Made by a program: the position numbers and the translations under genes | Assembly: GCA_964527905.1 (NCBI GenBank) | Contig: CAZGQL010000005.1 | Span: 1 to 60,670 of the forward strand | Reading direction: 5' to 3' | Length of the DNA stretch: 60,670 nucleotides | Source: an uncultured Syntrophobacteraceae bacterium | GTDB taxonomy: Bacteria; Desulfobacterota; Syntrophobacteria; Syntrophobacterales; Syntrophobacteraceae | The notes under the pieces: model-generated | Told to the model about the DNA's origin: nothing | Database searches by the model: none | Seen by the model: only the letters and a program-made list of their open reading frames with translations | In this document: positions 1-28,955 of the stretch, piece by piece | How positions within the stretch are numbered: position 1 is the stretch's first letter | Layout of the letters: each line of letters starts with the position of its first letter

Positions 1-1143
1 CTCGGAGGCGGACCAGCCGTTCCCCTTCACGATGTCCTTGTGCTTCTCGGTGATTTCCTTGCGGAAGGTCGCATTCACCTCCTCGATGCGCTTCTTTTCT
101 CCCGCCAGCTTGACGTCGTAAACGTTGCCCACGGGGATGTCAAAAAAGGAGCGCACGCCACCCGTGAAGGCCACGGCCTTTTCCTGGTTCGAGCCCGGAG
201 GACCCTGGACCTTATATTTGGGCGTGATGGGATAAACCCCCAGTTCGGAAACCAATTTTTGCCCTTCCTCGGAAATCAGGAATTCGATGAACGCATGGGC
301 GGCCTTCGGGTGGGGAGCTCCCTTCAAAACGGCCATCGGTTCCGGTGTAACGTAGGCATTGGTCGGATACACATACATGAGCTCATAACCGCCCAGAACC
401 TCCGCAAAGGCCATGTAGCTCGGGACGCCGAAGCCAACGGCAAACTCACCCTTGGCCACGACATTGGGCACGTCACGGGAACGGGCGGTGAAAATGCCCG
501 TGTTGGCGGCCAGCTTGGTGAGCCATTCCCATCCCTTCTCCCATCCGAAGGTTTGAAGAATGACCTCACAGGTCGCGTGGCTGGAGCTCGATCGATCGGG
601 GGTGCACTGGGCGATCTGACCCTTCAGCTTGGGATTGAGCAGGTCGTCCCAGTCCTTGATCTCGACGTCCAGGCGCTTGAGGAGCTTCGGTTGGTAAATG
701 ATGCCGTAGGGTTCCAGCATGGTGCCGACCCAGAACCGGTTTGGGTCCTTGATGGGCAGCGGCACGGGCTTGCCGATGGCCGCAGGGATTTCATCCCACA
801 TGGCTTGGGGAAGCTGGATTTTCTCCAAAAGCCCCTGGGAAGCCAGGTCGTCAAAAAGAATGCCTTCCCCGCCCCAGAAAATATCGGCTTGAGGATTGCC
901 TTTCCACTCGAGAATCTGCCCGTATGCCACGGGGGTCCCTTTGGGGATCGCACTGGTCTTGACCTCGATTTGCCACTTCTTTTTGGCATAATCGGCGAAC
1001 GCCTTGAGGACGGGGTCCGTGACATCCTTGGAAACCGGCGTGATCAGGTACAATTCGTTTTCAATGGGCTGGGCGTGGAGGGGGCTCCAACACGGAAAGG
1101 CCAAACCCACAATCAGTACGGTCAGCACGAAGATCTTTTTCAT
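1..1143 (-). CDS. ABC-transporter periplasmic solute-binding protein (family-1 extracellular SBP type); C-terminus runs off the window start
   Basis: Missing from the ORF track because no stop lies inside the window. Reverse-complement translation from ATG 1143-1141 gives MKKIFVLTVLIVGLAFPCWSPLHAQPIENELYLITPVSKDVTDPVLKAFADYAKKKWQIEV..., a signal peptide followed by SBP-like sequence. A GGAGGGAG Shine-Dalgarno lies just upstream. The listed + ORF 40..1158 is its antisense shadow. Confidence 0.7.
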   Translation of the reverse strand, partial: MKKIFVLTVLIVGLAFPCWSPLHAQPIENELYLITPVSKDVTDPVLKAFADYAKKKWQIEVKTSAIPKGTPVAYGQILEWKGNPQADIFWGGEGILFDDLASQGLLEKIQLPQAMWDEIPAAIGKPVPLPIKDPNRFWVGTMLEPYGIIYQPKLLKRLDVEIKDWDDLLNPKLKGQIAQCTPDRSSSSHATCEVILQTFGWEKGWEWLTKLAANTGIFTARSRDVPNVVAKGEFAVGFGVPSYMAFAEVLGGYELMYVYPTNAYVTPEPMAVLKGAPHPKAAHAFIEFLISEEGQKLVSELGVYPITPKYKVQGPPGSNQEKAVAFTGGVRSFFDIPVGNVYDVKLAGEKKRIEEVNATFRKEITEKHKDIVKGNGWSASE

Positions 1144-1514
1144 GAGTCTCCCTCCTAGGGCTTGTTGTGAACAGAAATCATGCTGGCTCTCCTCCCGACG
1201 CGCCCGCTTCGGGGTACAAGCGGTCCCAACCGGGTGACAATCCGACTGCCAATGCTCGGTCGAGGGTTGTGAGGCGGTCAAGCGGTTCCCGGGATGGTTG
1301 GTCTGCAGGTCGAACGGCATTCGACGGACGAGGGGGCGAGCCGGGCGCCGCGGGTCTGGTGCGTCATGAAGCGAAGCCACTATGATGGAAAGCTGCCCGA
1401 CGAGTCAAGTCAATTGGAGGTTCGGGGGCGAGGTTCGAGGAGGTGGAGGACTTGGGAGCAAACCAGCGACGGCAATAGATCTGTGCCGCGGGCGTCGCCA
1501 TTCTCTCAGAGGAC

Positions 1515-1591
1515 TGGTGCCCCCGGCAGGACTCGAACCTGCGGCACCGAGATTAGGAATCTCGTGCTCTATCCGCCTGAGCTACGGGGGC
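1515..1591 (-). tRNA. tRNA-Arg (anticodon CCT)
   Basis: The reverse complement GCCCCCGTAGCTCAGGCGGATAGAGCACGAGATTCCTAATCTCGGTGCCGCAGGTTCGAGTCCTGCCGGGGGCACCA folds as a 77-nt cloverleaf. It has a 7-bp acceptor stem, a GTTCGAGTC T-loop, anticodon loop TTCCTAA and an encoded CCA. Confidence 0.95.
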
Positions 1592-1895: not shown

Positions 1896-1972
1896 GCGCC
1901 CGTAGCTCAGCTGGATAGAGTGCCGGACTACGAATCCGTAGGTCGCACGTTCGAATCGTGCCGGGCGCGCCA
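1896..1972 (+). tRNA. tRNA-Arg (anticodon ACG)
   Basis: GCGCCCGTAGCTCAGCTGGATAGAGTGCCGGACTACGAATCCGTAGGTCGCACGTTCGAATCGTGCCGGGCGCGCCA is 77 nt. It has a perfect 7-bp acceptor stem, anticodon loop CTACGAA, a GTTCGAATC T-loop and an encoded CCA. Confidence 0.95.
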
Positions 1973-2018: not shown

Positions 2019-2554
2019 TTCGCCATTTTGTCCCCGTTCTGTCCCCGTTTTTCCAAAGACGCTCATCACGCCTTCGCCATGCAAAGGCGGCTTCCATACC
2101 TTACCTCCACTGCCGGGGACACTCACCATAGGGCCTTGAGTTCTCCAAGACGCCGGCATCAGCCACCAGAGGGCCGGCCCCACTCGAAAGTCCCCTGCCC
2201 GGGGAGTCACTGATCGATCCTTCCGCTGGTGCTCTCCGAGACCCATAGCCGATCCATCCGCGCTCTGCGGGTGGCGGTGATCTGCCTGGGAGAGGCCCGG
2301 CAGGCTGCTTCTCAGGAATGGGGGACTTCTCTTGTCCGTGATAACACGGCTCCCGTTGGCTTGGTTCCTGGTGATCGATCACCTTGCGCCCTTGTTCGCG
2401 GGCGCGCTTTGCGCACCGAAGGACAATGCATAAAGAGCGTGAGCGCCACGATTTCCCCGGAAGCGAAGCGCGTCCGGGGAACGGGCTGCGGCTGAGCCGC
2501 GCCACCAACGGCGGCGTCGGCTCGAGCCGCTTGTTAGGCCGCCCTTGTCACATT

Positions 2555-3148
2555 TTAGGGTTTCCAGATCTCCCATACTTTGCCTACAAGCGCTGGGTCT
2601 GGCTTGAGTGTGGTTTGACCTGGCTGCCAGCCTGACGGCGTTACTTCTCCAGTGGCTCGCACGTGCTGGAACGCCTTGATTTGTCTTAGCAATTCATCAG
2701 GATTACGACCTACCTCCGGGGTCAGCACCTCCATCGCCCGAATAACAAAATCTGGGTCAATGATGAACCGGCCCCGAATGTCTACCCCAGCCGCCTCGTC
2801 ATGTACCCCATAGACTGCACCTATCTTCCCACCGGCATCTGCAAGCATCGGAAATGGTACGCCACCGCTCACCATTTTGCACAACTCTTGCTCTTGCCAA
2901 ATCTTATGCACAAAGCGACTGTCGGTGCTCATCGCCAGCACTTCTATCCCAAGAGCCTTAAACTCCTCATACCGGGCGGCGACCGCCGCCAGTTCGGTCG
3001 GTCAGACAAACGTGAAATCTCCCGGGTAGAAACAAAGAACTATCCATTTGCCTCTATAGTCGGAAAGCTTGAGAGGCCGGAAGCCTTCCCCTTCAATGTA
3101 GGCATTGGTCTCAAAATCAATCGCCTCTTGGCCAACCCGTGCTAACAT
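2555..3148 (-). CDS. Selenocysteine-containing peroxiredoxin (AhpC/Prx1-type), 197 aa, with in-frame UGA (Sec) at 3004-3002
   Basis: Track ORFs 3002..3418(-) and 2555..2941(-) share a frame and are separated only by TGA. The read-through junction is [38 protein letters not shown], i.e. the Prx motif DFTFVCPTE with Sec at the peroxidatic Cys position. The start is ATG 3148-3146 (MLARVGQEAIDFE...), 6 nt after AAGGAGG. Confidence 0.85.
2975..2990 (-). promoter_or_regulatory. Putative bacterial SECIS hairpin (GGCGGC-GGUC-GCCGCC) 11 nt downstream of the UGA
   Basis: The mRNA reads UGA CCGACCGAACU GGCGGC GGUC GCCGCC CGG. This gives a 6-bp GC stem with a GGUC apical loop. The CCG directly after UGA can also pair with the CGG after the stem. 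Confidence 0.6.
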
Positions 3149-3321
3149 CTTGACCTCCTTTCCCATTGTGCTTCTCTCGGACGTTGCTGTGGATTCAGTT
3201 GTCGGTAAGATTGGTCCACGTGCCGGTTTGACACAACCATCCTTGAGTTCTGCCATTGCAACCTCCTCAATATCCATCGTTAGTTGTTTTTTGCAGCCAA
3301 GCTCTTCAGAGCTGGCCAACA

Positions 3322-3353
<32 letters not shown>

Positions 3354-3526
3354 TGAGCGGCGTCAGGTTCAAGCGCGTGTTCCAGTAAGCCGCTCGGCGG
3401 CAGGTTCCTTCGCCACAACCCTCGCCGACTCGCGCCAGTTTTGATTCTTCCTCAGTGATAACCTCCTTTGGGCTACCATACCTCTCCAAGGAAGAGTCAC
3501 TCGTTCGCACAAACGACGGGAGAGGT

Positions 3527-3895
3527 ATGGTCATGGAAAACTGGTACGAGCGAGCGATCAAGGCCCTGCAGCTCAACGGCGAGGAGGAACGAACCCCGCA
3601 GTGCTAAGGCGAGCGGTGCGGATGCTGGTGCAATTCTACGGCAGGACCCCCGACCGTGTCACGGAGGAAGAGCTTCAGGAGTATTTTCTCCATCTCAAGA
3701 AAGCCAACAAATGGTCTCCCAACACCATGCGGATCTGCTGCTGCGGCATTCGCTCCCTCTTTGAGAATGTGCTCCGGCGGGACTGGCACCTCCTCGGGAT
3801 TCTGCGAGCCCAAAACGGGCGCAGGCTTCCGTCCGTCCTCAGCGTCGAGGAAGTCCGAAGGCTTCTCGGCGAGGTCAAGGCAGTCCAGAATCACA
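3527..3895 (+). pseudogene. Tyrosine recombinase/integrase fragment (N-terminal SAM-like domain only; frameshifted and 3'-truncated)
   Basis: MVMENWYERAIKALQLNGEEERTPQC* is followed, after a frame change, by RAVRMLVQFYGRTPDRVTEEELQEYFLHLKKANKWSPNTMRICCCGIRSLFENVLRRDWHLLGILRAQNGRRLPSVLSVEEVRRLLGEVKAVQNH. The catalytic domain is absent. Confidence 0.7.
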
Positions 3896-4140
3896 CGTTC
3901 TTCCAGAAAAGCCGGCGCTGCTCCTTCATGCAGTGGGCCGTGAAGACGGGCTCATTGGCAGAGAGCAGATGGTGGAGGCGCTCCTTGCGATCGACGCTGA
4001 GATGATCGTAGTTCGTCAAGAGGAGGAAACGACTGCCTTTGAGGGTTTTCTTGCCAAGCTCATCGAGCTCCCTTTGCTGTTTTCGACGGAGCTCATCGAT
4101 AGCTTGGTTGACCAGTGCTGCCACAGGGTAATCGTGCCAA
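3891..4140 (-). pseudogene. ISL3-family transposase fragment (middle part)
   Basis: FWHDYPVAALVNQAIDELRRKQQRELDELGKKTLKGSRFLLLTNYDHLSVDRKERLHHLLSANEPVFTAHCMKEQRRLFW matches the ISL3 DRFH...VRR...LKGSR.LLLKN...LKE..R..W region. It is cut off where it abuts the integrase fragment. Confidence 0.65.
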
Positions 4141-6081: not shown

Positions 6082-6171
6082 ACGACAATTTGTGCGGGGT
6101 TGGTGGGGCCCGCAGCAGCCCCACACTCCGTGCAGCACAGCCCGCAACCTGTCCTTAAACGAGGAGAAGTC

Positions 6172-6480
6172 ATGTTTCAGGCCATAGCAGATGACGTTTT
6201 TGTTTCCACCGTCGAGAGCGTTGACAGCGGAGTCGTGATTTTCGTCAAGAAGCTCTGCCCTCATTGCAAGAACATGCTGAAAATGCTTGAAAAATTCATA
6301 AAAATCGTCCCGGCGGCTCAGGTCTTTACCGCGGACATCGAGGAGTGCCCACTGTCCACGGCAGCTTTGACGGTGGACCGAGCCCCTACGGTTTGTGTCG
6401 TGAAAAGCGGGAAAATCGTGGCTCGGAAAACCGGCCTCATGAATCCCAGGGAGATGGCGGCGTTCTACGAAGGCGTCTGA
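6172..6480 (+). CDS. Thioredoxin-fold protein with CPHC redox motif (102 aa)
   Basis: MFQAIADDVFVSTVESVDSGVVIFVKKLCPHCKNMLKMLEKF... A GAGGAG SD lies 5 nt before ATG 6172. Confidence 0.75.
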   Translation: MFQAIADDVFVSTVESVDSGVVIFVKKLCPHCKNMLKMLEKFIKIVPAAQVFTADIEECPLSTAALTVDRAPTVCVVKSGKIVARKTGLMNPREMAAFYEGV

Positions 6481-6514
6481 TGCCTGCGCTCGCACTGAAA
6501 AAAGGGGGGCTCCC

Positions 6515-7447
6515 ATGAAAGAAACCCGTTCCTTCGATGTTCTGATCATCGGCGGCGGCATCGCCGGAATGACGGCGGCCATTTATCTCGCCAGGGCCAA
6601 TGTCAAGGCCGTGATCCTCGAGAAAGCCATTTGCGGCGGTCTCTGCAATTACACGTATGTCGTGGAAAACTTCCCCTCCTACCCCTCCATTCACGGGATG
6701 GACCTCATGCAGAAGGTTCGGGATCACGTGGACCATCTGGGCGTGGCAGTGGAGGAAGTGTGTGAGATCCAGCGGCTGGATATCACCGGCCGGGAAAAGG
6801 TCATTGAAACGGATGAAGCCCTTTACAAGGGAGCGGCCGTGATCGTCGCCACGGGGCGAAAGCCCATCCTGCTGGATGTCCCAGGGGGCGAGGCCGTTCA
6901 CTACTGCTCTGTCTGCGACGGTTTCGCCTATGCCGGAAAGCGGGTGCTGGTGGCCGGGGGCGGAAACAGCGGTTTCGACGAAAGCCTCTACCTCTTACGG
7001 ATCGGGGTCCGGCACATCACACTGGTCGAGGTGATGGACCGCTTCTTCGCCGCCCAGTCCGCCCAGGATGAACTGTTGAACCACGACAACGTCGACGCCC
7101 GCACGGGCACCAAGGTCATTGAAATCCTTCAGGAGAACGGCAAAGTCTCGGGGGCGGTCCTGGAAAAGGTGGCTACAGGGGAGCGGGAAACCATCGAAAT
7201 TGACGGCGCCTTCGCCTTCCTTGGCCAGAACCCGACCACCGAGTTCCTCAAGGGCATCGTGGATCTCGATGACTACGGCTACGTCCTGGCTGGAGAGGAC
7301 ATGAGCACCAGCGTCCCTGGCGCGCATTCCGCAGGGGACCTGAGCTGCAAGCGGTTCCGGCAGCTCACGACGGCCATGAACGACGGCACGATCGCGGCCC
7401 TGGCCTGCGAGCGCTATGTTCGCACTCAGCAATCCTGTGCCGTGTAG
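6515..7447 (+). CDS. Thioredoxin-reductase-like flavoprotein (low-Mr TrxR fold, CSVC redox centre, NADPH 2'-phosphate motif not conserved)
   Basis: It has an FAD GxGxxG motif (DVLIIGGGIAGMTAA), redox motif HYCSVCDG, second dinucleotide motif VLVAGGGNSGFDESLYL and C-terminal GAHSAGD. The HRRDxxRA region reads VEVMDRFFAAQ. Confidence 0.8.
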   Translation: MKETRSFDVLIIGGGIAGMTAAIYLARANVKAVILEKAICGGLCNYTYVVENFPSYPSIHGMDLMQKVRDHVDHLGVAVEEVCEIQRLDITGREKVIETDEALYKGAAVIVATGRKPILLDVPGGEAVHYCSVCDGFAYAGKRVLVAGGGNSGFDESLYLLRIGVRHITLVEVMDRFFAAQSAQDELLNHDNVDARTGTKVIEILQENGKVSGAVLEKVATGERETIEIDGAFAFLGQNPTTEFLKGIVDLDDYGYVLAGEDMSTSVPGAHSAGDLSCKRFRQLTTAMNDGTIAALACERYVRTQQSCAV

Positions 7448-13117: not shown

Positions 13118-15178
13118 ATGGGCTCAAGTGGACTCAGCGCAGCGGCACTGCTCATGAACGTGACTTCGGGCGAACGATCCAAGATCGCGCAGCGAATCAC
13201 TTCGAACGAATTCTCGCACGAGCTCTCGCAGCTGCAGCAAATCCAATCGGCCATCCCGGGGGTGATCCCGGAGTTGCAGAGCCCCCAGCGCGCAGCGGAA
13301 CAGGCTCCCATGGCTGCCGGCCCGGGGCTCGTTGTCGTGCCTCAGCCTGCCATCGAGTCCTCGGATGCCAAGGCGGCGCCGGTCGGTGAAGCGTCATCGG
13401 TCCAGTGCGGCCATGGAAAGTGCGGGGGCACCCAGACGCGGGTCAGCCAGGTGAAGAGCAAGGCACTCTCCCAGCAGCAGGTCCTGGATACGCTCTATTT
13501 CACCGATGTCACGGCCCTCGAGCGCGTCCTGGCTCAACTGAGGATGCCGGCGGAGGTCCGGCAGACCCTCCAGGGGACTGGGGACAAGCAGAGCCGGATC
13601 CCCCTGAAGACGGTGCGCGGTTTGCTGCTCACCCATTCTCCGGAACCCGGCCCCAACGGAGCTTCGCTGGTGGCCGCAAAAGACGTACAGGAGCTCGTGA
13701 AGTCCTTGTGCCGGCTTCAAGACGGGGCCGCAGTTCCGCTCGATCCGCTCAAGACCAAAGTCGATGGTTCGTACTCGCTGGCTGAGCTTGGCGACCTGTT
13801 ATCGAGGATCGTGCGGGATGCGAGTGACAAAGAGCTGCGGAGCCTTCCCCTCAGGGAAAGGCAAGGAAACACGCTCCCCGTCACCGATCGCGCAGCGGGA
13901 ATCCCCGAACTTGAACCGACCGTGCTTCCCAAAGGCCAAGTGGAGCGCCTGACTCGGCAAAGGATTCCGACCTTCTTGAGGACCTCGACGAAGGATTGGG
14001 AAGAGGCGGGGGAACGAGTGACCCAGAATTCCGAGATGCAGGCAAGAGGAGGCTCCGTGTCGATGACACCCTTTGGGTTCGTTCCCCCGAGCGGGATCAT
14101 TTCAGCGGGTGCGCGTCAATCGCACGTTCCGGAGGACGGGAGCAACCCGTCGGTCACGGGGTTACCCCCGTCTTCGTCTGCGGACTTGCCCGAGGAGATC
14201 TCTCGTGAGGTCAAAATCACGCCAGCCCCGGTAAATGAAGAGGTCTGGTCCGCAAGGCCCGAGGTGGCACGAGTGGATGGACTCGTCGGCGTGGAAGCCC
14301 GACAACGGCCGCAGCCCTTCGAGACGGGTCCAAACGGGGGTGGAGACCCGTTTGCATCCGATGCATGGGGATCCGGGAGCCATGCGGTGTCCCGCCCGGA
14401 AGCGCCCGTCATCGCGCTGCGTGCGGTCCAAGTGGACGGGCAGGCTCGTGAAAATGAATTGCATGTGGAGAGGCCTGATGGGGCCGATGTCCGCGAACCG
14501 CTCTCCAGTTTGGAAGGGCGTGGGGCGATCTCCCTCGCAAGGGGGGGCCAGCTGACCTCGAGCAATGAGGGCGGTGAGTCGGGGGGAGGGCTGGATCCGT
14601 CACGGACGGATCAGGAAACCCCGAGACAGGTCGCGGATAGCACCGAGGCGGGATCGAGCGGATTCGAGACGCTCCACCTGGAAGGGGAACGCTTGACCCA
14701 GGCGACACGATCGTCCTCCATCGGAGGGGCCGATTCCGGCGCCAAGCTGCGCCTGGTCGAATCCACGTGGCCGGAGAGTCTGTCGAGGCAGATCGAGGAA
14801 TCCCATCGGCAGGGTCGGTCGCATCTTACCATCGAACTGGAACCGGAAGCGCTTGGGAAGCTGGTCCTCCGCGTTGAATCCGACCGCAACCACGTGACGG
14901 CCTGGGTGTCCACGCAAAGCGAGGAAGCCAGAAAGGTTCTGCTTCATGGAGCGTCGGCTCTGCGGCGGCACCTGGAAGAGCAGGGACTGACTTTGGGCCA
15001 GTTCAATGTGGACGTGGGGCGTCAGGGCGGCGAACAGCGCTTTGCGCAGGCGGGTCCAAGCCGCAAGACGACTGGAAGGACTTCGGGAATCCGCGTGGAT
15101 TCATCCGTCGACGGGGTGGCGCCCCGCAGGATGGACGCCTATGCGAGCCCGGACCGTCTCATCAATGTTTTGGCATGA
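13118..15178 (+). CDS. fliK: Flagellar hook-length control protein FliK
   Basis: Long low-complexity N-terminal part. The C-terminal Flg_hook domain reads HLTIELEPEALGKLVLRVESDRNHVTAWVSTQSEEARKVLLHGASALRRHLEEQGLTLGQFNVDV. It is followed by flgD-flgE. Confidence 0.85.
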   Translation: MGSSGLSAAALLMNVTSGERSKIAQRITSNEFSHELSQLQQIQSAIPGVIPELQSPQRAAEQAPMAAGPGLVVVPQPAIESSDAKAAPVGEASSVQCGHGKCGGTQTRVSQVKSKALSQQQVLDTLYFTDVTALERVLAQLRMPAEVRQTLQGTGDKQSRIPLKTVRGLLLTHSPEPGPNGASLVAAKDVQELVKSLCRLQDGAAVPLDPLKTKVDGSYSLAELGDLLSRIVRDASDKELRSLPLRERQGNTLPVTDRAAGIPELEPTVLPKGQVERLTRQRIPTFLRTSTKDWEEAGERVTQNSEMQARGGSVSMTPFGFVPPSGIISAGARQSHVPEDGSNPSVTGLPPSSSADLPEEISREVKITPAPVNEEVWSARPEVARVDGLVGVEARQRPQPFETGPNGGGDPFASDAWGSGSHAVSRPEAPVIALRAVQVDGQARENELHVERPDGADVREPLSSLEGRGAISLARGGQLTSSNEGGESGGGLDPSRTDQETPRQVADSTEAGSSGFETLHLEGERLTQATRSSSIGGADSGAKLRLVESTWPESLSRQIEESHRQGRSHLTIELEPEALGKLVLRVESDRNHVTAWVSTQSEEARKVLLHGASALRRHLEEQGLTLGQFNVDVGRQGGEQRFAQAGPSRKTTGRTSGIRVDSSVDGVAPRRMDAYASPDRLINVLA

Positions 15179-15220
15179 TCGGGCGTCGTCGAGGACGTTC
15201 GATCCAACAGGAGTACCTCC

Positions 15221-15904
15221 ATGCCTGAGATATCCCCGATTCAGACGCTGGATGGCGGCGGCACGAGTGCCAGCGGCAGTGCTTCAAGGAGCAAGTCACT
15301 GGACATGAACGCGTTCTTGAGGATGTTCACAACCCAGCTCAGGTACCAGGACCCGACGAACCCTCTGGAGTCCTACGAGCTTGCCGCGCAGCTGGCCCAG
15401 TTCAGCACCGTTGAAAAACTGACGGACATCAGCGCCCGTCTTGAAGAGCAAAAGCAGTACCTGGTGTCGCTGACCAACACGCACATGGTCCAGATGATCG
15501 GCAAGGAGGTAACCGGTGCCTATGATGGAATCCGTGTTCAAGACGGGAGCGCTAGCAAAGCCTCTTATGAGCTCTCCGATCAGGCGGCTACGGTCACGGT
15601 GAAGATCTACACCGAGAACGGCGTGCTGGTACGGACCCTCGAAATCGGCCCCCAGAATCCCGGTCGGCACGACATTCAGTGGGACGGGAAGGACCAGTCG
15701 GGAAAGAGCGTTCCCAACGGGACGTATCGTTTCAACGTGGAGCCGCTGGCGTCGGACGGCTCCAAACTCGAAGCCCAGGAGTATGTGCAGGGCAGCGCGT
15801 TTGCCTTTCGGTTGGTGAACGGAGTGGGATACCTGGTTTTGGGTGGTGAAAACGGACTTCTCCTGCCGGCATCGACGATCACCGAGGTCGTCAACGCTGG
15901 GTAG
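15221..15904 (+). CDS. flgD: Flagellar hook capping/assembly protein FlgD
   Basis: FLRMFTTQLRYQDPTNPLESYELAAQLAQFSTVEKL plus an Ig-like C-terminal part (GRHDIQWDGKDQSGKSVPNGTYRFNVE). Confidence 0.9.
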   Translation: MPEISPIQTLDGGGTSASGSASRSKSLDMNAFLRMFTTQLRYQDPTNPLESYELAAQLAQFSTVEKLTDISARLEEQKQYLVSLTNTHMVQMIGKEVTGAYDGIRVQDGSASKASYELSDQAATVTVKIYTENGVLVRTLEIGPQNPGRHDIQWDGKDQSGKSVPNGTYRFNVEPLASDGSKLEAQEYVQGSAFAFRLVNGVGYLVLGGENGLLLPASTITEVVNAG

Positions 15905-15991
15905 AACGAAATCGAAGCAGGCACAGGCCTCAGCGGCATTCGGAACGCTTGAGGGCGTTTCGCAGAGGAAACGGGGAAAGGAGATCGGACG

Positions 15992-16786
15992 ATGGGAATC
16001 GGCACTGCAATGTACAATGGCGTCAGCGGTCTGAACAGCTTCAGTTCGGCGATGGGCGTCGTGAGCGACAATATCGCCAACGCGGCGAGCACCGGTTTCA
16101 AATCTAACAGCATCCGCTTTGGGGATATGGTGAACAGCTACTATTCGATCAACTCCAACGATACGGAGGGGGAAGGCTCGGGCAGCATGGTGCTTGGCGT
16201 CGCCACCGATTTCGCCCAGGGGACCATCCTGCCTTCCTCGCAATGGAGCGACGTGGCGATGAGCGGCGAAGGGTTCTTCATCCTCGATGGTCCCAATGGG
16301 ATTCCCTACTACACCCGGGACGGAAGCTTCCACGTCGATGCCTCCAACACGCTGGTCAACCAGCAGGGGATCCCCGTCATGGGCAATGTGGGCGGGGCCC
16401 TGGGGCACATCACCATCGACGTCATGAGCTACATCAGCTTCCGCGTGGAAACCGACGGCGATATCATCGGGATTGCGGCGGACGGCACCGAAACCACGCT
16501 GGGCCAGCTGGGTCTTGCCACGTTTTCCAACAAGAACGGTCTGGTGCGTCAAGGAAGCAACCTCTACATAGAGGGACCGGAAGCCGGCACGCGAATCACC
16601 AACACCGATCCCGCAAACGCAGGCTACTTCGGCATGGTGTTGGATTACAGCCTGGAGGGTTCCAACGTCGACATCGCCAAGCAGATGGTCGACATGATCA
16701 TCTATCAGGCCGACTTCAACGCCAACTCGAAGACCATCACCACGTGCCAGCAGATGATGGAAACGACCATTAACATGGTCCGCTAG
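15992..16786 (+). CDS. flgE: Flagellar hook protein FlgE (short form, 264 aa)
   Basis: N-terminal rod/hook motif MYNGVSGLNSFSSAMGVVSDNIANAASTGFK and C-terminal LEGSNVDIAKQMVDMIIYQADFNANSKTITT. It sits directly after flgD. Confidence 0.75.
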   Translation: MGIGTAMYNGVSGLNSFSSAMGVVSDNIANAASTGFKSNSIRFGDMVNSYYSINSNDTEGEGSGSMVLGVATDFAQGTILPSSQWSDVAMSGEGFFILDGPNGIPYYTRDGSFHVDASNTLVNQQGIPVMGNVGGALGHITIDVMSYISFRVETDGDIIGIAADGTETTLGQLGLATFSNKNGLVRQGSNLYIEGPEAGTRITNTDPANAGYFGMVLDYSLEGSNVDIAKQMVDMIIYQADFNANSKTITTCQQMMETTINMVR

Positions 16787-16854
16787 CACTGGTTTTCTCC
16801 CCGTCGGCCGTGGAGTCCCGTCCGCCCGGACATGGGACTTCCCGACCTTGAACC

Positions 16855-16903
16855 GGAAGTCATGGTTTTGATCCTTTTCCGAAGTGTCAAAACCATGGCT
16901 TCC
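16855..16903 (+). terminator. Large stem-loop (17 bp, one G-U, 15-nt loop) 69 nt after flgE; probable operon-boundary or mRNA-stabilising hairpin
   Basis: GGAAGTCATGGTTTTGA-N15-TCAAAACCATGGCTTCC pairs along its full length. No T-tract follows it. The next sigma54 promoter is about 105 nt downstream. Confidence 0.45.
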
Positions 16904-17007
16904 AGCCCTTCCGCCAGGGGGCCCCAATTTCCCCGGGACGGGTGCCGCCGCACGGTTTCCAGCCCCTTGATCCCTCTCGGCCTTCCCGGATGTTTCCCTC
17001 TGATCCG

Positions 17008-17022
17008 TGGCATGCTCGTTGC
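17008..17022 (+). promoter_or_regulatory. sigma54 promoter upstream of fliL: TGGCATGCTCGTTGC
   Basis: Same TGGCAT-N5-TTGCT pattern as the fliK and flgF sites; 111 nt upstream of the fliL ATG. Confidence 0.7.
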
Positions 17023-17132
17023 TTTATCGGTCGTGCAATCCGTCAAGGGAATTCGGTCACGCCGGCTCTCGCCGGCTGGGCTTCGTTCAAGATCATCCGT
17101 TGAAACATCGTACAGGAAGGGCAGGGAGAATC

Positions 17133-17639
17133 ATGGCTCAGGAAAACTCCGGTGGACAGAACGAAGAGCCGAAAAAGGGCTCGCCCCTCAAACTGATCGT
17201 CATCCTTGTGGTGGCTTTGGGCGCCCTCGGAGGAGGCGGGTTTTTCGCCTACAGCAAGTTCTTCAAGAAGGCGCCACCAGCGGAACAGGCGGGAGAGGCC
17301 CACGCGAAACCGGCCGACGCCAAAGGGCAGCCCGAAAAACTGGTCATCTTCGATTGGGAGCCGCTCCTGGTCAACCTCGCCGACCCCGGCGGGAAGCGCT
17401 ACCTGAAGCTCAACATGAAGGTGGAGCTGACGAACGAAAAGGCCCTCGAAGAGCTCAAGAATCGGAGTTTCCAGCTCAAGGACGCCATGTTGATGCTTTT
17501 GTCGGGGAAGGAATTCGAGGACATCTCGACGGCATCCGGCAAACAGGCCTTGAAGCAGGAAACGATCGCTCAGGTCAACAAGCTCCTCAAGACGGGGCAA
17601 GTCAAGGAAATCTACTTCACGGATTTCATCGTTCAATGA
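17133..17639 (+). CDS. fliL: Flagellar basal-body-associated protein FliL
   Basis: MAQENSGGQNEEPKKGSPLKLIVILVVALGALGGGGFFAY has a single TM. It is followed by LLVNLADPGGKRYLKLNMKVEL...EIYFTDFIVQ. GGGAGAA SD precedes ATG 17133. Confidence 0.85.
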   Translation: MAQENSGGQNEEPKKGSPLKLIVILVVALGALGGGGFFAYSKFFKKAPPAEQAGEAHAKPADAKGQPEKLVIFDWEPLLVNLADPGGKRYLKLNMKVELTNEKALEELKNRSFQLKDAMLMLLSGKEFEDISTASGKQALKQETIAQVNKLLKTGQVKEIYFTDFIVQ

Positions 17640-17657
17640 GCTGAAGGGCTTGTCCGC

Positions 17658-18647
17658 ATGGAAAAAGTGCTTTCCCAGGATGAAGTCGATGCCCTGTTGA
17701 GGGGCCTTTCCGACGGAGAGATCGAAACAGAGAAAGCGGAAGCGGAGGAACAGAGCGGCATCAGGAAATACGACCTCACCAGCCAGGATCGTATCATCCG
17801 GGGCCGCATGCCAACGCTCGAAATCATCAACGATCGCTTCGCCCGGTTGTTTCGGGTCAGCCTTTCGAGCTCTCTGCACAAGGTCATCGACATCACCGTG
17901 ACCCAGACCGAGATGATCAAGTTCGGGGAGTTCGTGCGAACGCTCCCCGTGCCCACGAGTCTACACGTACTCAAGATGGATCCACTTCGAGGCCACGCGC
18001 TCCTGGTCGTGGAGAGCCGGCTCATTTTCAATCTGGTGGACTGCTTCTTCGGGGGAACGGGAAAGAGCAACTTCAAGATCGAGGGGCGGGATTTCACCTC
18101 CATCGAGCACCGGGTGATCCACAAAGTGGTGGAGGCGGTGCTTCGGGAGTTGGATCAGTCCTGGAAGCCCGTGTGCCCCATCAGTTTCCAGTTTGTGCGT
18201 GCGGAGGTGAACCCCCAGTTTGCGACGATTGTTCCGCCTTCTGAGGTGGTGATCGTCATCCACTTCGAGCTCGAATTGGACCGGTTGATCGGGAAGATGA
18301 TTCTTTGCCTGCCTTATTCCACCATCGAGCCCATCCGCGACAGGCTCTACGCGAGCTACCAGAGTGATCAGCTCGAGGTGGATCAGGCCTGGATCACCCG
18401 CTTAAGGAAGCGCCTTTTGGATGTGGAAGTCAATGTGCTCATCGAGCTCGGCAAAACGACCGTGAGGGGCCGGGAGCTCCTTCACCTGGGAGTGGGGGAT
18501 GTGCTGCTCCTGAGCCACGACATGAACGAACCCCTCACCGTCAACGTGCAGGGAGTCCCGAAATTCAAAGCCATTGCGGGAACGTCCCGGGGAAACCGGG
18601 CGTTTCAAATCGTTGAAGCGACCCCCATGAATCAGGAGCCCGCCTGA
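17658..18647 (+). CDS. fliM: Flagellar motor switch protein FliM
   Basis: The N-terminal CheY-P binding peptide is LSQDEVDALLRG. The FliM middle and C-terminal SpoA-like domains are present. Confidence 0.95.
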   Translation: MEKVLSQDEVDALLRGLSDGEIETEKAEAEEQSGIRKYDLTSQDRIIRGRMPTLEIINDRFARLFRVSLSSSLHKVIDITVTQTEMIKFGEFVRTLPVPTSLHVLKMDPLRGHALLVVESRLIFNLVDCFFGGTGKSNFKIEGRDFTSIEHRVIHKVVEAVLRELDQSWKPVCPISFQFVRAEVNPQFATIVPPSEVVIVIHFELELDRLIGKMILCLPYSTIEPIRDRLYASYQSDQLEVDQAWITRLRKRLLDVEVNVLIELGKTTVRGRELLHLGVGDVLLLSHDMNEPLTVNVQGVPKFKAIAGTSRGNRAFQIVEATPMNQEPA

Positions 18648-18671
18648 TTCGGGGCCGAGGGAGGTAACACG

Positions 18672-19049
18672 ATGGAATCCAAGGAACAGGTACAGCAAAC
18701 GCAACAGGAGGGGCCCGCTTCGGCCCCCGCCAGGGACGGAGCACAATTCCCGGCCCTTGAACAGGGCGGGGCACGCCAACGGGCTGCCTCGAGGGACCTG
18801 GACTTCCTGTTGGACATCCCGCTGGAGGTTTCCGTCGAGCTGGGGGCGACGACCATGCTCATCAATGATCTCCTTCAGTTGGGGCAGGGTTCGGTGATCG
18901 AACTCAACAAGCTGGCGGGTGAGCCGCTCGAAATCCTGGTCAACCACACCCTGATCGCCAGGGGGGAGGCGGTGGTCATCAACGAAAAGTTCGGCGTGCG
19001 GATCACGGACATCATCAGTCCGACGGAACGGGTCAAACAGCTCGGATGA
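18672..19049 (+). CDS. fliN: Flagellar motor switch protein FliN
   Basis: LDFLLDIPLEVSVELGATTMLINDLLQLGQGSVIELNKLAGEPLEILVNHTLIARGEAVVINEKFGVRITDI. Confidence 0.95.
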   Translation: MESKEQVQQTQQEGPASAPARDGAQFPALEQGGARQRAASRDLDFLLDIPLEVSVELGATTMLINDLLQLGQGSVIELNKLAGEPLEILVNHTLIARGEAVVINEKFGVRITDIISPTERVKQLG

Positions 19050-19082
19050 TTCGGGCGCTTCCCCTGAACTGAAAGGGACGCC

Positions 19083-19403
19083 GTGGAATTCGGTGTGGAA
19101 TTCATCAAGATGCTCGGTGCGCTAAGCCTCGTTCTCGCCGTACTGGTGGGGGCGCTCTTCGCCCTGAAGAAGGCCGGCAAATGGGTTCGGAAGCCCGACC
19201 GGAACGACTGGATTCAGGTGGTGGCGCAGCACCCCATCGGCATCAAGCATCATCTCGTGCTGGTGCGAGTCCGGGAGGAGTTGCTGCTGGTGGGCGTCTC
19301 GCCTCAGGGCATGCATCTGCTGAGCCCGTCCCGCCCGGCTCCGGCCACCGGTTGGCCGGCAGACCTTCCGGAGCTGCATCCACCGGGAGATGGCCCACGA
19401 TGA
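19083..19403 (+). CDS. fliO: Flagellar biosynthesis protein FliO
   Basis: Single TM (LGALSLVLAVLVGALFAL) and ...HHLVLVRVREELLLVGVSPQGMHLL. It starts with GTG after AGGGA and overlaps the fliP start (ATGA). Confidence 0.75.
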   Translation: MEFGVEFIKMLGALSLVLAVLVGALFALKKAGKWVRKPDRNDWIQVVAQHPIGIKHHLVLVRVREELLLVGVSPQGMHLLSPSRPAPATGWPADLPELHPPGDGPR

Positions 19404-20167
19404 GACATGCATCCGCATACCTGTTGGGATCCGTGATTCTGTTGCTCGGCGTGCTGCTTTTCACCTGTCCCGGTGAGGCCGCCTCGGAGCTGGCTCTTCC
19501 CGGAATTCGATTCAATCTCGATGATCCTTCGGCTCCCAAGCAGATTTCCGGAATTTTGAACACAGTCCTCATCTTGACGGTCATGAGCCTGGCCCCGGCC
19601 ATCCTGATCCTCACCACCTCGTTCACCCGTCTGGCCGTGGTGTTGGCGTTCCTCAAACAGGCTCTGGGGACCCAGGGAACTCCCCCCAGCCAGGTCATCG
19701 TCGGATTGGCGATGTTCCTGACCTTCTTCGTGATGCAGCCCGTCTGGGAGCGGATTCACCAGGAAGCGGTCGTGCCGTATCAGCGCCACGAGATCTCGGG
19801 GGAGGAGTTCCTGACCCGGGGGATGAAGCCTTTGAAGGACTTCATGCTGAAACAGACCCGTAAACAGGATCTGGCGCTGTTCGCGTCCCTTGCACTGCAT
19901 GAGAAACCCAAGAATGCCGATTCCCTTCCGATCACCACGGTGGTCCCGGCCTTTGTCATCAGTGAGCTCAAGACCGCCTTTCAAATCGGTTTTTTGCTGT
20001 ACCTGCCCTTCATCATTCTCGACATGGTGGTTTCGAGTATCCTGCTTTCCATGGGCATGATGATGCTTCCCCCGGTGATGATTTCCATGCCCTTCAAGCT
20101 CATGCTGTTTGTGTTGGTTGACGGGTGGAACCTGCTGATCACCTCGCTCGTAAAAAGTTTTCATTGA
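19400..20167 (+). CDS. fliP: Flagellar export apparatus protein FliP
   Basis: MRHASAYLLGSVILLLGVLLF signal, then ...LTVMSLAPAILILTTSFTRLAVVLAFLKQALGTQGTPPSQV... and FLLYLPFIILDMVVSSILLSMGMMMLPP. Confidence 0.95.
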   Translation: MRHASAYLLGSVILLLGVLLFTCPGEAASELALPGIRFNLDDPSAPKQISGILNTVLILTVMSLAPAILILTTSFTRLAVVLAFLKQALGTQGTPPSQVIVGLAMFLTFFVMQPVWERIHQEAVVPYQRHEISGEEFLTRGMKPLKDFMLKQTRKQDLALFASLALHEKPKNADSLPITTVVPAFVISELKTAFQIGFLLYLPFIILDMVVSSILLSMGMMMLPPVMISMPFKLMLFVLVDGWNLLITSLVKSFH

Positions 20168-20177
20168 AGGAGCGGTC

Positions 20178-20447
20178 ATGACTCCGGAATCGATCATCGG
20201 CCTGGCCAAGCAGTCCCTGGAAACCATGCTCTACGTTTCCATGCCGGCCCTTCTCCTCAGCCTGATCGTAGGCTTGATCGTCAGCGTGTTTCAGGCGGTG
20301 ACCCAGATCCAGGAGATGACCATCGCGTTCGTGCCCAAGATCGTGGCAACGTTTCTATCGCTGCTGGTCTTTGGGGCCTGGATGCTTGGAAAGCTTTTGG
20401 ATTTCACGCGAGAAATCATAACCAACATCCCCCAGTGGGTTCAGTAG
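20178..20447 (+). CDS. fliQ: Flagellar export apparatus protein FliQ
   Basis: An 89-aa two-TM protein (MTPESIIGLAKQSLETMLYVSMPALLLSLIVGLIVSVFQAVTQIQEMTIAFVPK); AAGGAG SD. Confidence 0.95.
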   Translation: MTPESIIGLAKQSLETMLYVSMPALLLSLIVGLIVSVFQAVTQIQEMTIAFVPKIVATFLSLLVFGAWMLGKLLDFTREIITNIPQWVQ

Positions 20448-20532
20448 GGCCGCAGGATCTCCGCCCGGTACAATGGGCCAATGCCGACGGTCCTCGACCG
20501 ATGGTTGAGGGGGGGAAGATGCCAACCCGAAT

Positions 20533-21303
20533 ATGGTCGATCTTCAGATCAATCCCACGGAAATCGGAATCTTTCTGGCCATCCTGCTCCGGCTGAGCCT
20601 GTCTTTCTTCATGGTCCCCCTGTTTTCCAACGCCCACCTGCCGGCCATCGTCAAAGCCTTCACGGCGCTGGGGCTTTCGGTCCTGCTCCATCCCCTGGTT
20701 CGGGGATCCGTCACGCCCCTGCCCACCGACCCGATATCGCTCGCCTGGATCGTCATGGGTGAAATCCTCTTTGGCGTCATCCTTACCCTGACCGTCATGC
20801 TGTTGTTCAGTTCCTTTCAGCTGGCCGGTGAGCTGATCAGTTTTCAGATGGGATTTGGCTTCGCCATGGCGGCGGACCCCCAGAGCGGGGTGACCATGTT
20901 GGTTCTGAGCCGCTGGTTCCAGATCACAGCCACGTTGATTCTGTTTTCGATCAATGGGCACCATCTGATCTTGAAGGCTATAGTCGACAGTTTCGGGGCC
21001 GTTCCGATCGGAGGCTTCGCGGCCATGGAGCCGGCTTTCGGGCGTCTGATGCACTTGGGGGCCCAGATGTTCGTCATCGGTCTCAAGGTGTCCGCGCCGA
21101 TCATGCTGGCCATGCTGCTGGTTCAGGTGGGGCTGGGCTTGATGGCCAAGTTCTCCCCCCAGGTGAATTTGCTTGCCACCACGCTGCCGTTGACGATCGT
21201 GATGGGGTTTGTGTTGCTGGCCCTGTGCGCGGCTCTCTGGGGGGCGGCTCTGGAGGGTAACCTCACCCGGCTGGGCCCGCTGTTGGCAGGGGCCGTCCGT
21301 TGA
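20533..21303 (+). CDS. fliR: Flagellar export apparatus protein FliR
   Basis: Polytopic protein with FLAILLRLSLSFFMVPLFS... in the position following fliQ. Confidence 0.9.
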   Translation: MVDLQINPTEIGIFLAILLRLSLSFFMVPLFSNAHLPAIVKAFTALGLSVLLHPLVRGSVTPLPTDPISLAWIVMGEILFGVILTLTVMLLFSSFQLAGELISFQMGFGFAMAADPQSGVTMLVLSRWFQITATLILFSINGHHLILKAIVDSFGAVPIGGFAAMEPAFGRLMHLGAQMFVIGLKVSAPIMLAMLLVQVGLGLMAKFSPQVNLLATTLPLTIVMGFVLLALCAALWGAALEGNLTRLGPLLAGAVR

Positions 21304-21408
21304 CCAGCGCTTAGGGGAAGCGTGGAATCGGATGGGCAGGGGACGGCCTCAGGACAAAAGATTGACTGCGGGAAGGTTTTTGACGAGTGAGGCCATAAGG
21401 GAACATTC

Positions 21409-22476
21409 ATGTCGAGCGGCCAGGAACGCACGGAAAAGCCAACCAGCAAGCGCCTTCAGGATGCCCGAAAGAAGGGGAACATCCCGAGGAGCGCGGAGCT
21501 CACGAGCGCCGCCCTGATTCTGGTGGGGGGGACGGTGGCGCTGTTCAGCGTCCGGTTGATCCACTCCCGTTTTGAGAATCTGTTGCATTTTCTCTGGGGA
21601 CAGGGGTTCTCCTCAACCGCACGTGACGCGATCTACGACGGCAACCAGGCGATCACGATCATGGGCAACTTTATCCTCATGATCGCACCGGTTCTCCTGG
21701 GCGTCCTCCTCACGGCCCTTGGGATCAACCTGTTCCAGACTCGAGGGCTGCTCGTATCCGCAGAACCCCTCCAGTTTGACTGGTCCAGGGTCAACCCCCT
21801 GACCGGATTCAAGCGTTGGATTTCCCTTCGATCCCTGATTGAGCTCGCCAAGTCGCTGCTCAAGATCGGGATCGTCGCCTACGCCGTGTACACGGTGCTT
21901 CGTTCCGGAGCCCCGATGCTCGCCACGCTATGCGACGTGGAGGTGATCGAATCCGTTCGAATCCTCGGCAGCCTGAGTTCGTCGATCCTGTACCGGGTGG
22001 GGGGAATCATGCTGGCGGTCAGCATCCTGGACTATGCCTACCAGCGTTGGCAACATCAGAAGGATCTGCGCATGACCAAGCAGGAGGTCAAGGAAGAGCA
22101 CAAGCAGACGGAAGGCAACCCGCAGATCAAGTCTCGCATTCGATCGCTCCAGCGGGCGATGGCCCGACAGCGCATGATGGCCAATGTGCCGAAGGCGACG
22201 GTGGTGATCACGAACCCGACGCATTATGCGGTGGCCCTCGAGTACCACACGGGGATGGAGGCTCCGAAAGTCACGGCCAAGGGCATGGACTTCGTGGCGA
22301 AGCAGATCATCAAGCTCGCCCGAAGGAGCGGCGTCCCGGTGCACCAGAACCCTCCCTTGGCACGTGCTTTGTATTCCCAGGTGAAGCTCGACGAATCGAT
22401 TCCCATGAATCTGTACAAGGCAGTGGCAAGGGTACTCGCCTACATCTTTCAACAAAGGAAGAACCGATCGGGATAG
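21409..22476 (+). CDS. flhB: Flagellar export switch protein FlhB
   Basis: MSSGQERTEKPTSKRLQDARKKGNIPRSAEL..., with the NPTH autocleavage motif (VVITNPTHYAVAL). Confidence 0.95.
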   Translation: MSSGQERTEKPTSKRLQDARKKGNIPRSAELTSAALILVGGTVALFSVRLIHSRFENLLHFLWGQGFSSTARDAIYDGNQAITIMGNFILMIAPVLLGVLLTALGINLFQTRGLLVSAEPLQFDWSRVNPLTGFKRWISLRSLIELAKSLLKIGIVAYAVYTVLRSGAPMLATLCDVEVIESVRILGSLSSSILYRVGGIMLAVSILDYAYQRWQHQKDLRMTKQEVKEEHKQTEGNPQIKSRIRSLQRAMARQRMMANVPKATVVITNPTHYAVALEYHTGMEAPKVTAKGMDFVAKQIIKLARRSGVPVHQNPPLARALYSQVKLDESIPMNLYKAVARVLAYIFQQRKNRSG

Positions 22477-22486
22477 CAGGTGATCC

Positions 22487-24592: not shown

Positions 24593-25655
24593 GACGTACC
24601 GGGCAGCAACGATTCGAGAGGCACTCGACCAGGTGAAACGGGACCTGGGCGAGGATGCCATCATCCTGGGCAACCGCAAGGTTGCGGTTTCGGATAAGGA
24701 AACCCAGGTGGAAGTGACGGCCGCCATCGAACCGGTCGGCGCGTCGGCGCCTTCTCAAGAGCTGTCGGGGGAGATCCGGGAAATCAAGGATCTGCTGTCT
24801 CTTCTCATTTCGTCCAAGGACTATTTCGCCCGCTTGCAGCTCGAGGAGCCGGTCAACACGTTGTACCATTCCCTGTTGGCTCGTGGTCTGGATGAGAAGC
24901 ACTGCTTCGTGTTGTTGAAGCGCGTGTTGACGGAGCAAAACGGGTGTTGCGCGGATCGTCGGAAGGTCATCGAGCATTTCAGCAGGCTGGTGCTCGAACG
25001 AGTTCGCTTCAGCCGGCCTTTCAGCAATCCGCAATCGTCCCGAACCGGCCGAAAGGTGTATTCCTTCGTGGGTCCAACGGGCGTCGGAAAAACAACGACG
25101 CTGGCGAAGCTTGCGGCCCACACGCGGCTCAAACGCGGCCTTCGCGTGGGCCTCATTTCCCTGGATACCTACCGAATCGGCGCCGTGGACCAGCTGCGCA
25201 CCTACGCCAACATCCTGGGGGTTCCCCTGATGGTTGCGCAGTCCCGTGAAGAGTTCGGCAAGGCACTGGCCTCCCTCGGGCAGCAGGACGTGGTGTTGGT
25301 GGACACCATCGGCAAAAACTTCCTGATCCAGGATCAGGTACGGGATCTTCAACAGACGTTCGCCGATACCGATGGGGTGCAGCATTTCCTGGTCCTGAGC
25401 GCCACGGCCAAGGACGAGGATCTCAAGCAGACCGTTCAGCACTTCAGGCCCCTGGAGGTGCACAGCCTCATCTTCACAAAACTCGATGAAACCGCGAGCC
25501 ACGGTTGCGTGATCAACCAACTCCTCCGCTTTCCCCATGCCGTGTCGTATTTCGGGACGGGCCAGAGGGTCCCGGAAGACATCGAACTGGCGACGCCAAA
25601 GCGGTTACTGGCTCTGCTCTTTCCCTTTGGAAATGGTTCGATCGGAAAGGAATAG
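24582..25655 (+). CDS. flhF: Flagellar SRP-type GTPase FlhF
   Basis: GPTGVGKTTTLAKLAA P-loop, DTIGKN and TKLDET motifs. It overlaps the flhA end by 11 nt. Confidence 0.9.
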   Translation: MQLKTYRAATIREALDQVKRDLGEDAIILGNRKVAVSDKETQVEVTAAIEPVGASAPSQELSGEIREIKDLLSLLISSKDYFARLQLEEPVNTLYHSLLARGLDEKHCFVLLKRVLTEQNGCCADRRKVIEHFSRLVLERVRFSRPFSNPQSSRTGRKVYSFVGPTGVGKTTTLAKLAAHTRLKRGLRVGLISLDTYRIGAVDQLRTYANILGVPLMVAQSREEFGKALASLGQQDVVLVDTIGKNFLIQDQVRDLQQTFADTDGVQHFLVLSATAKDEDLKQTVQHFRPLEVHSLIFTKLDETASHGCVINQLLRFPHAVSYFGTGQRVPEDIELATPKRLLALLFPFGNGSIGKE

Positions 25656-25659
25656 TCTC

Positions 25660-26550: not shown

Positions 26551-26571
26551 CCAACTAAGAAGAATGAGAAA

Positions 26572-27426: not shown

Positions 27427-27518
27427 GACTTGGGGGATTCCATCGCCAGCGTCGCTCGCGTGCATCGTCACCCGCAACCACAAGCTGCCGGCTCAATGAG
27501 CTCATTTGACCCAAATGG

Positions 27519-28289: not shown

Positions 28290-28310
28290 GAGCCGGACCC
28301 GGACAACGTC

Positions 28311-28940: not shown

Positions 28941-28955
28941 TGGCATTCTCATTGC
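28941..28955 (+). promoter_or_regulatory. sigma54 promoter upstream of flgF: TGGCATTCTCATTGC
   Basis: Exact -24/-12 spacing, 29 nt upstream of the flgF ATG. Confidence 0.7.

Follow-up and report, generated by a model that had tools for sequence, protein, structure and literature searches.

An in-frame UGA at the peroxidatic position of a PrxU-type peroxiredoxin gene from an uncultured Syntrophobacteraceae bacterium

Two open reading frames (ORFs) that share a frame and are parted by a single stop codon may be the remains of a dead gene or the two halves of a living one. The question is raised by a locus in the 60,670-nucleotide stretch analysed here (the window), which is positions 1 to 60,670 of the forward strand of contig CAZGQL010000005.1 in GenBank assembly GCA_964527905.1, from an uncultured Syntrophobacteraceae bacterium. 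On the minus strand of the window, ORFs 3002..3418 and 2555..2941 lie in one frame, and their sole separator is a TGA at 3004..3002. An initial annotation, made from the letters of the window, read the pair as one selenoprotein, a peroxiredoxin (Prx) with UGA at the catalytic cysteine codon; the coordinates and the read-through peptide that it gave are as we find them. Our analysis indicates that 2555..3256 (-) is very probably a single intact gene, prxU, for a thioredoxin-dependent PrxU peroxiredoxin in which the UGA would specify selenocysteine (Sec) at the catalytic site.

The UGA codon and the protein on either side of it

Translation of 3148..2555 (-), the part of the frame considered in the initial annotation, starts with MLARVG, ends with WKP* and contains one internal stop only. 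The long reading frame, 2555..3256 (-), has 233 codons and a TAA stop at 2555..2557. Numbered on this long form, the UGA (3002..3004, minus strand) is residue 85 and occupies the peroxidatic position of P78-xxx-T82-xx-U85, an active-site motif of the PxxxTxxU/C type (PMC13188914). The peroxiredoxin active-site residues P78, T82 and U85 and the conserved Arg, R161, are all present in the window protein, and their columns are invariant in a 36-sequence alignment. With the stop treated as Cys, the Pfam domains AhpC-TSA, Redoxin and 1-cysPrx_C are recognized. Scored with U written as C, the long form reaches 370.6 bits against the NCBIfam equivalog profile NF040737 ('peroxi_PrxU', cutoff 270 bits), with coverage of profile positions 2-230 of 233; the family description is that of a thioredoxin-dependent peroxiredoxin. 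The nearest solved structures are typical 2-Cys Prx such as human PRDX2 (7kj1_A, E 3.5e-47, residues 39-220). By its sequence, the window protein has the AhpC/TSA fold and belongs to PrxU, a curated family of selenoprotein peroxiredoxins.

Two sets of loci were used to follow the UGA codon through the family. The genomic set consists of the 80 closest loci in GTDB species-representative genomes, at 75-88% identity. The metagenome set consists of 48 loci from a scan that was seeded with a Cys form (P0037) and was intended to gather Cys-form controls. At the peroxidatic codon, 80/80 genomic loci have TGA and so, despite the Cys-form query, do 47/48 metagenome loci; Sec forms thereby dominate the close relatives (127/128 loci). 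More distant homologues have Cys (TGC or TGT) at the Sec codon. The initial annotation had proposed such an alignment with Cys- and Sec-containing homologues, and its outcome, together with the PrxU family score, bears out the placement of the UGA at the peroxidatic codon.

The codons on the far side of the UGA speak to the same question. Measured against 73 orthologues of equal length, nonsynonymous (pN) and synonymous (pS) divergence are 0.080 and 0.782 over the 148 codons downstream of the TGA, and 0.120 and 0.840 over the 48 codons upstream. Exactly 148 codons follow the TGA in 74 of the 81 sequences. Because the downstream codons are at least as constrained as the upstream codons, translation evidently runs through the UGA. 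The initial annotation had named truncation with no downstream conservation as one of the findings that would count against its proposal, and what is seen is the opposite.

If the UGA had instead arisen by a nonsense mutation, TGC or TGT to TGA, that killed a Cys-peroxiredoxin, the two ORFs would be decaying fragments of a pseudogene. Only one base change is needed, and the surroundings lend the idea some appeal: prxU adjoins mobile-element debris and is a compositional outlier, and no Sec machinery is seen within the window (see below). It is difficult to see, however, how decay could have produced the identical TGA in 80/80 plus 47/48 independent homologues, a downstream region of 148 codons with pN of 0.08 against pS of 0.78, no frameshift and no further stop, and a covarying hairpin (see below). 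We consider a pseudogene very improbable.

A search of 5.8 billion proteins brought in a different possibility, as well as a view of how such genes are rendered in public protein sets. Among the best 120 clusters, which were classified, 53 show 'W' in place of Sec (the TGA having been translated with code 4/25), 28 have Cys, and ~21 are 145-aa C-terminal fragments that start just past the TGA and are 86-90% identical to the window protein. The expectation that standard annotation would split the gene is realized in these C-terminal fragments and in the 'W' clusters. Taken at face value, the 53 clusters would mean that a standard amino acid (Trp, Gly or Cys) is inserted at the UGA through a reassigned code or near-cognate read-through, but the W entries reflect gene callers choosing code 4/25 for short contigs. 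TGA is the ordinary stop for 15 of the 35 Pfam-supported window genes (prxU itself ends with TAA), and a reassigned code is therefore excluded; the use of TGA as terminator in 19 of 81 prxU orthologues likewise marks the code as standard. Moreover, Trp at the peroxidatic position would be catalytically dead, a SelB-type hairpin, conserved and with a GU that never varies, follows the codon at the canonical distance, and PrxU is an experimentally verified selenoprotein family. Decoding as a standard amino acid is, in our estimate, extremely improbable.

The relatives with Sec-prxU (75-88% identity) come mostly from Chloroflexota metagenome-assembled genomes (MAGs), and also from Desulfobacterota, Nitrospirota and Acidobacteriota; further MAG labels are Gemmatimonadota, Armatimonadota, Cloacimonadota, Fibrobacteraceae and Gammaproteobacteria. 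This spread over phyla reflects either frequent inter-phylum transfer or binning noise.

The hairpin downstream of the UGA

A hairpin of the bacterial selenocysteine insertion sequence (SECIS) type lies at 2975..2990 on the minus strand and starts 11 nt past the UGA. Its 6-bp stem is formed by GGCGGC (2990-2985) and GCCGCC (2980-2975), which enclose a GGUC loop (GGTC in the DNA, 2984-2981). The G and U of the loop are nucleotides 22 and 23, counting from the U of UGA. The position of the hairpin, its distance from the UGA and the numbering of the loop GU had all been given correctly in the initial annotation, which also called the structure SECIS-like.

The comparison set for the hairpin comprises 81 ungapped sequences, with 500 shuffles as the background. 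In the stem, 99.0% of cells are paired, and 32 double-sided changes are found against 7.1±2.1 in the shuffled sets, with none of the 500 reaching that number. Two pairs involve wobble positions that the encoded peptide leaves free. One, pair 18-27, is G-C in 57 sequences, A-U in 22 and U-A in 1; the other is G-C in 67, A-U in 6, C-G in 1, U-A in 1 and G-U in 3. The loop is GGUC in 71 sequences, AGUU in 7 and GGUU in 3, with G and U columns that are invariant. The first and last loop bases (2984 and 2981 in the window) covary as well, being G..C in 71, A..U in 7 and G..U in 3, and are 100% pairable. It would fit these counts if the outer loop bases formed a loop-closing pair, with the G and U presented to SelB.

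Synonymous variation is suppressed in the same place. Entropy at four-fold sites averages 0.75 bit in the five hairpin codons, compared with 1.75 bit at 60 other sites, where the minimum is 1.21. In other subclades, amino-acid changes encoded by one arm are matched by compensating changes in the other (S..V, T..V and S..D), giving the stems GUCGGC/GCCGAC, GACGGC/GCCGUC and AUCGGC/GCCGAU. A further contrast is provided by six Cys forms that encode the same or nearly the same peptide. Their loops read GGTG, TGTC, AGTC, AGTG, TGTG and GGTC, and Watson-Crick pairing is kept at the outer wobble pair in 1/6, versus 75/81 Sec forms (Fisher p 7e-5), and at the loop-closing pair in 1/6, versus 78/81 (Fisher p 9e-6).

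The best-studied point of comparison is the SECIS of Escherichia coli fdhF, whose minimal form is a 17-nt stem-loop 11 nt from the UGA, with an essential G23/U24 at the apex and a bulged U17 that is contacted by SelB (PMC8659212). A conserved G (GU) in a small apical loop is a feature of the bacterial SECIS consensus (PMC1088965). Like the fdhF element, the prxU hairpin lies inside the ORF, 11 nt past the UGA, and has a small apical loop with G and U. It differs from fdhF in its 6-bp, nearly pure G-C stem, in a lower stem that is unconserved, and in having no bulged U, the stem being a perfect 6-bp helix. Because the bulged U17 is absent, the loop GU lies one nucleotide closer to the UGA than in fdhF. 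The bulge is not known to be part of the general bacterial SECIS consensus. With these departures from fdhF, covariation and suppressed synonymous variation argue for the SECIS-like role that the initial annotation proposed.

As judged by comparison of the homologues, then, the UGA stands at the peroxidatic position, the protein downstream of it is under purifying selection, and the hairpin at 2990..2975 is under selection at the RNA level. From these features and from established bacterial Sec decoding, we infer Sec incorporation at the prxU UGA and SelB-dependent read-through. The simplest pathway would begin with the hairpin acting as a bacterial SECIS, with the SelB·GTP·Sec-tRNA(Sec) complex bound to the GGUC apical loop while the ribosome is at the UGA 11 nt upstream. 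The SelB complex would out-compete release factor 2, and the UGA would be decoded as selenocysteine-85. In the finished enzyme, the selenolate would attack peroxide, and the resulting selenenic acid would be recycled by a thiol, ultimately by thioredoxin.

Two further structures deserve mention. RNAfold draws a 4-bp lower stem (ACCG/CGGU) beneath the hairpin, which we rejected, since pairing amounts to 62% and is mostly lost at the middle pairs. A second Sec-Prx subclade (loci L106-L124; a short form, with ...FV-U-PTEISHIAVGY) has TGA at the peroxidatic codon and lacks GGCGGC-GGUC-GCCGCC; its members have another stem-loop further downstream, for example AUAGCC-GUA-GGCUAU, which may be the SECIS of that subclade.

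Points on the other side and the genomic setting

Several observations weigh against the selenoprotein reading, some concerning the RNA and others the host. On the RNA side, the Cys-form control is small (n=6). The single-sequence fold by RNAfold is not significantly more stable than dinucleotide shuffles, with a z-score of -1.2 for 41-61 nt. The Ala-Ala-Val-Ala-Ala codons force four of the six stem pairs. Finally, bacterial SECIS has no Rfam family, hence no curated model for the hairpin; Rfam searches at the gathering cutoff and at E<=10 gave nothing relevant around prxU, chance matches only. On the host side, no selA, selB, selD or tRNA-Sec was found within the 60.7-kb window by ARAGORN, Rfam and Pfam (the last on ~45 ORFs), nor were tRNA-Sec (by ARAGORN) or sel genes found in the flanks of the 80 related loci. 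That the host has Sec machinery is likely, and this is deduced from its lineage only. The gene also stands out from its surroundings: its G+C content at third codon positions (GC3) is 0.54, compared with 0.73±0.05 for 35 other window genes (minimum 0.59), and homology to other loci is confined to 2479..3297. Immediately upstream, prxU is adjoined by an integrase N-terminal SAM-like fragment at 3601..4005 (+) and an ISL3 transposase fragment at 3891..4124 (-). Since prxU looks horizontally acquired, function in a Syntrophobacteraceae host is not guaranteed.

With regard to the RNA, the fold that the initial annotation had suggested computing does contain the hairpin, and the minimum free energy of the window sequence is -16.6 to -21.6 kcal/mol; what the calculation does not support is unusual stability in this G+C-rich context, although the bare 16-mer alone reaches a z-score of -3.0. 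Because the other stem pairs are forced by the peptide, the case for selection on the RNA rests on the two wobble pairs, the loop-closing pair and the dip in entropy. The candidate SECIS is, in short, established by comparison and not by thermodynamics. Perhaps the hairpin is a by-product of the Leu-Ala-Ala-Val-Ala-Ala peptide, with GCN codons pairing among themselves to no recoding purpose and some other signal recoding the UGA, as the four peptide-fixed pairs, the weak z-score and the 4-6 of 6 pairs (counting G·U) still formed by Cys forms of that peptide would allow, but we give this almost no credence when covariation at the free wobble positions is nearly complete (22/22 A with U), entropy at four-fold sites drops to 0.75 bit from 1.75 bit elsewhere, the loop is limited to GGUC/AGUU/GGUU in 81 Sec forms and varied in 6 Cys forms, and amino-acid changes compensate from arm to arm in other subclades.

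With regard to the host, the best named relatives of the FlhA encoded in the window belong to Syntrophobacteraceae MAGs and Desulfoferrobacter (68-76% identity). A 2006 survey credited Syntrophobacter fumaroxidans with 31 selenoproteins, including SelD and a peroxiredoxin (PMC1794560). No second selenoprotein candidate was found in the window, either by Pfam on the ~45 ORFs or by scanning between long ORFs for TGA in frame; the matches that the scan returned were rejected as adjacent-gene artefacts.

The composition, the confined homology and the flanking fragments are consistent with prxU being a horizontally acquired, self-contained cassette. Clustering of the prxU neighbourhoods at 81 loci revealed no strongly conserved partner. 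The best neighbour groups, identified by eye, are a MinD/ParA-like Fe-S ATPase (15 loci), an Mrp-like protein (13) and a Fur-like regulator (8), none of which occurs in the window. Downstream of prxU are two tRNA-Arg genes, 1515..1591 (-) and 1896..1972 (+), the only RNA genes in the window. About 3 kb from prxU, on the opposite strand, a thioredoxin-fold protein with CPHC (6100..6480, plus strand) is followed by a low-Mr thioredoxin reductase (TrxR)-like flavoprotein with CSVC (6515..7447, plus strand). This pair (6100..7447) is not in the gene groups common to at least 6 of the 81 loci; it is possible that the two proteins serve as reductants of PrxU.

Most of the window is taken up by a flagellar and chemotaxis super-cluster (13118..57098), with flagellar genes at ~13-36 kb and 53-57 kb. 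These encode FliK, FlgD, FlgE-like, FliL, FliM, FliP, FliR, FlhB, FlhA and FlhF, as well as a FliA-like sigma factor, FlgG-like, FlgA, FlgH, FlgI, FlgK, FlgL, FliD and two flagellins. The chemotaxis genes are those for CheZ, CheA, CheB, CheX and CheR. A Desulfobacterota host is in keeping with the diderm-type rings and with CheZ. Other Pfam-annotated window genes encode a sulfatase, a major facilitator superfamily (MFS) transporter, a two-component system and glycosyltransferases, and ORFs 40..1158, 25678..26508, 27519..28289 and 45648..46385 have no Pfam match.

Two start sites, the N-terminal extension and the PrxU family

Where does translation of prxU begin? The initial annotation pointed to AAGGAGG followed after six nucleotides by ATG at 3148, giving a 197-aa Prx. 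The Shine-Dalgarno (SD) sequence (3154..3160, minus strand) and the in-frame ATG (3148..3146, Met37) hold up, with the spacing corrected to 5 nt, and so does the 197-aa product, but a 233-aa form is likely as well. The prxU frame is open beyond ATG 3148, up to a second start, ATG 3256..3254, which has its own SD sequence, GAGGAGG (3262..3268, minus strand), 5 nt upstream.

Both starts are conserved. Query residues 1-233 are aligned by 80/80 genomic homologues, and an SD-like motif, mostly AGGAGG or GGAGG, precedes the equivalent of the upstream start (taken as 7 codons before a conserved Cys) in 77 of 78 orthologues. At the internal start, a motif of the same kind (again mostly AGGAGG/GGAGG) is found 5 or 8 nt upstream in 80 of 81 sequences. 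Because the residues encoded at the internal SD site vary (KEV, QEV, PEG, REV, SGG and others), and because the motif lies in a different codon register at two loci, it is the nucleotide sequence of the internal SD that is conserved. The internal SD site is missing, and the Cys motif retained, in forms whose N-termini are long and resemble signal peptides. With an SD sequence at each of its two conserved in-frame starts, the gene probably yields both a 233-aa form, which includes the N-terminal Cys motif, and a 197-aa form that lacks it. In the closest homologue, L056 (Anaerolineales UBA3905, 88%; 9990-10100), the match extends over 700 nt and the N-extension is out of frame, with no in-frame Cys motif; either a frameshift or faulty assembly of that MAG accounts for the disruption.

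The extension of 36 residues belongs to the NF040737 model, since the upstream residues raise the score, from the 353.2 bits of the 197-aa form, which matches profile positions 35-230 of 233, to that of the long form, and extend coverage to position 2. It carries the motif C8-V-K-P11-A-R-G14-P15 (3212..3235, minus strand), followed by a hypervariable linker of ~20 residues. Among 36 N-extended family members (54-76% identity), C8, P11 and G14 never vary, and conservation of P15 is 90% or more. The extension has no counterpart in solved Prx structures, the best match beginning at query residue 39. In an AlphaFold2 model, made for a Cys form that is 77% identical (P0008) and not for the window protein itself, residues 11-20 are of moderate confidence, with a predicted local distance difference test (pLDDT) score of 74 and a short strand at 14-16, and the linker is disordered; confidence is lower in the active-site segment, 81-90 (pLDDT 61).

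The typical 2-Cys Prx of the Prx1/AhpC group (human PRDX2, PRDX4, Salmonella AhpC) share with the window protein the PxxxTxxC motif, the conserved Arg and the core fold. The window protein differs in having Sec in place of the peroxidatic Cys and Thr206 (2639..2641, minus strand) in place of the resolving Cys, as seen in the alignment of GEVTPSGW with GEVCPAGW of PRDX2; Thr is at least 90% conserved in this column of the family alignment. It also has Cys75 (3032..3034, minus strand, in LCFYPGDF), 10 residues before the Sec and invariant (alignment column C76), where the typical 2-Cys enzymes have Phe, and it has the Cys-bearing N-terminal extension in addition. Because the resolving Cys is absent, the window protein is not a typical 2-Cys Prx in mechanism.

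What, then, would resolve the oxidized selenocysteine? A tentative suggestion, on balance doubtful, is that Cys8 of the long form, borne on a flexible, hypervariable linker, is a tethered resolving thiol that forms a selenenylsulfide with Sec85 and so replaces the lost C-terminal resolving Cys. The two starts would then yield two isoforms, of which the short one would be a 1-Sec enzyme or would use Cys75. No description of such a tethered-thiol, two-isoform PrxU architecture was found in the literature searched.

Sec-containing peroxiredoxins themselves are far from new. They are known from every survey of bacterial selenoproteomes, and anaerobes have them in abundance. The protein of Eubacterium (Peptoclostridium) acidaminophilum, Söhling's PrxU of 2001, is said to be a short form of ~203 aa with Sec47. 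It belongs to the same NF040737 family as the window gene product and has Sec at the peroxidatic TxxU. The window gene differs in its 36-residue N-extension with the invariant Cys motif and in its second start, and also in its host, a member of the Syntrophobacteraceae where E. acidaminophilum is a Firmicute. Sec-Prx (TxxU) was demonstrated in E. acidaminophilum in 2001 (Söhling) and is listed as an experimentally verified prokaryotic selenoprotein in PMC13188914.

Genes of the same kind from the same broad lineage are those of S. fumaroxidans (PMC1794560) and Desulfococcus multivorans, the latter annotated as two locus tags split at the UGA, dmul_C20060/70, with a SECIS downstream (PMC5109826). 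The likeness of the window gene to these two is by description; its closest relatives by sequence (86-88% identity) are in Anaerolineae MAGs. The selenoprotein call of the initial annotation is correct and the finding an ordinary one, in a long-known family whose novelty that annotation overrated.

The practical consequence is that prxU should be annotated as one coding sequence with a Sec translation exception at 3004..3002, and not as two fragments or a pseudogene. The same correction has a wider reach, in that very many PrxU entries in public protein sets are wrongly rendered, either showing W in place of Sec or consisting of fragments that have artificial starts. The 81-sequence set also provides clean natural covariation data for a minimal bacterial SECIS, of 6 bp and a GGUC loop. 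For biology, nothing fundamental is added, Sec-peroxiredoxins having been known since 2001; the dual ribosome-binding sites and the N-terminal Cys motif, combined with the loss of the resolving Cys, could nonetheless refine the view of how the PrxU clade is recycled.

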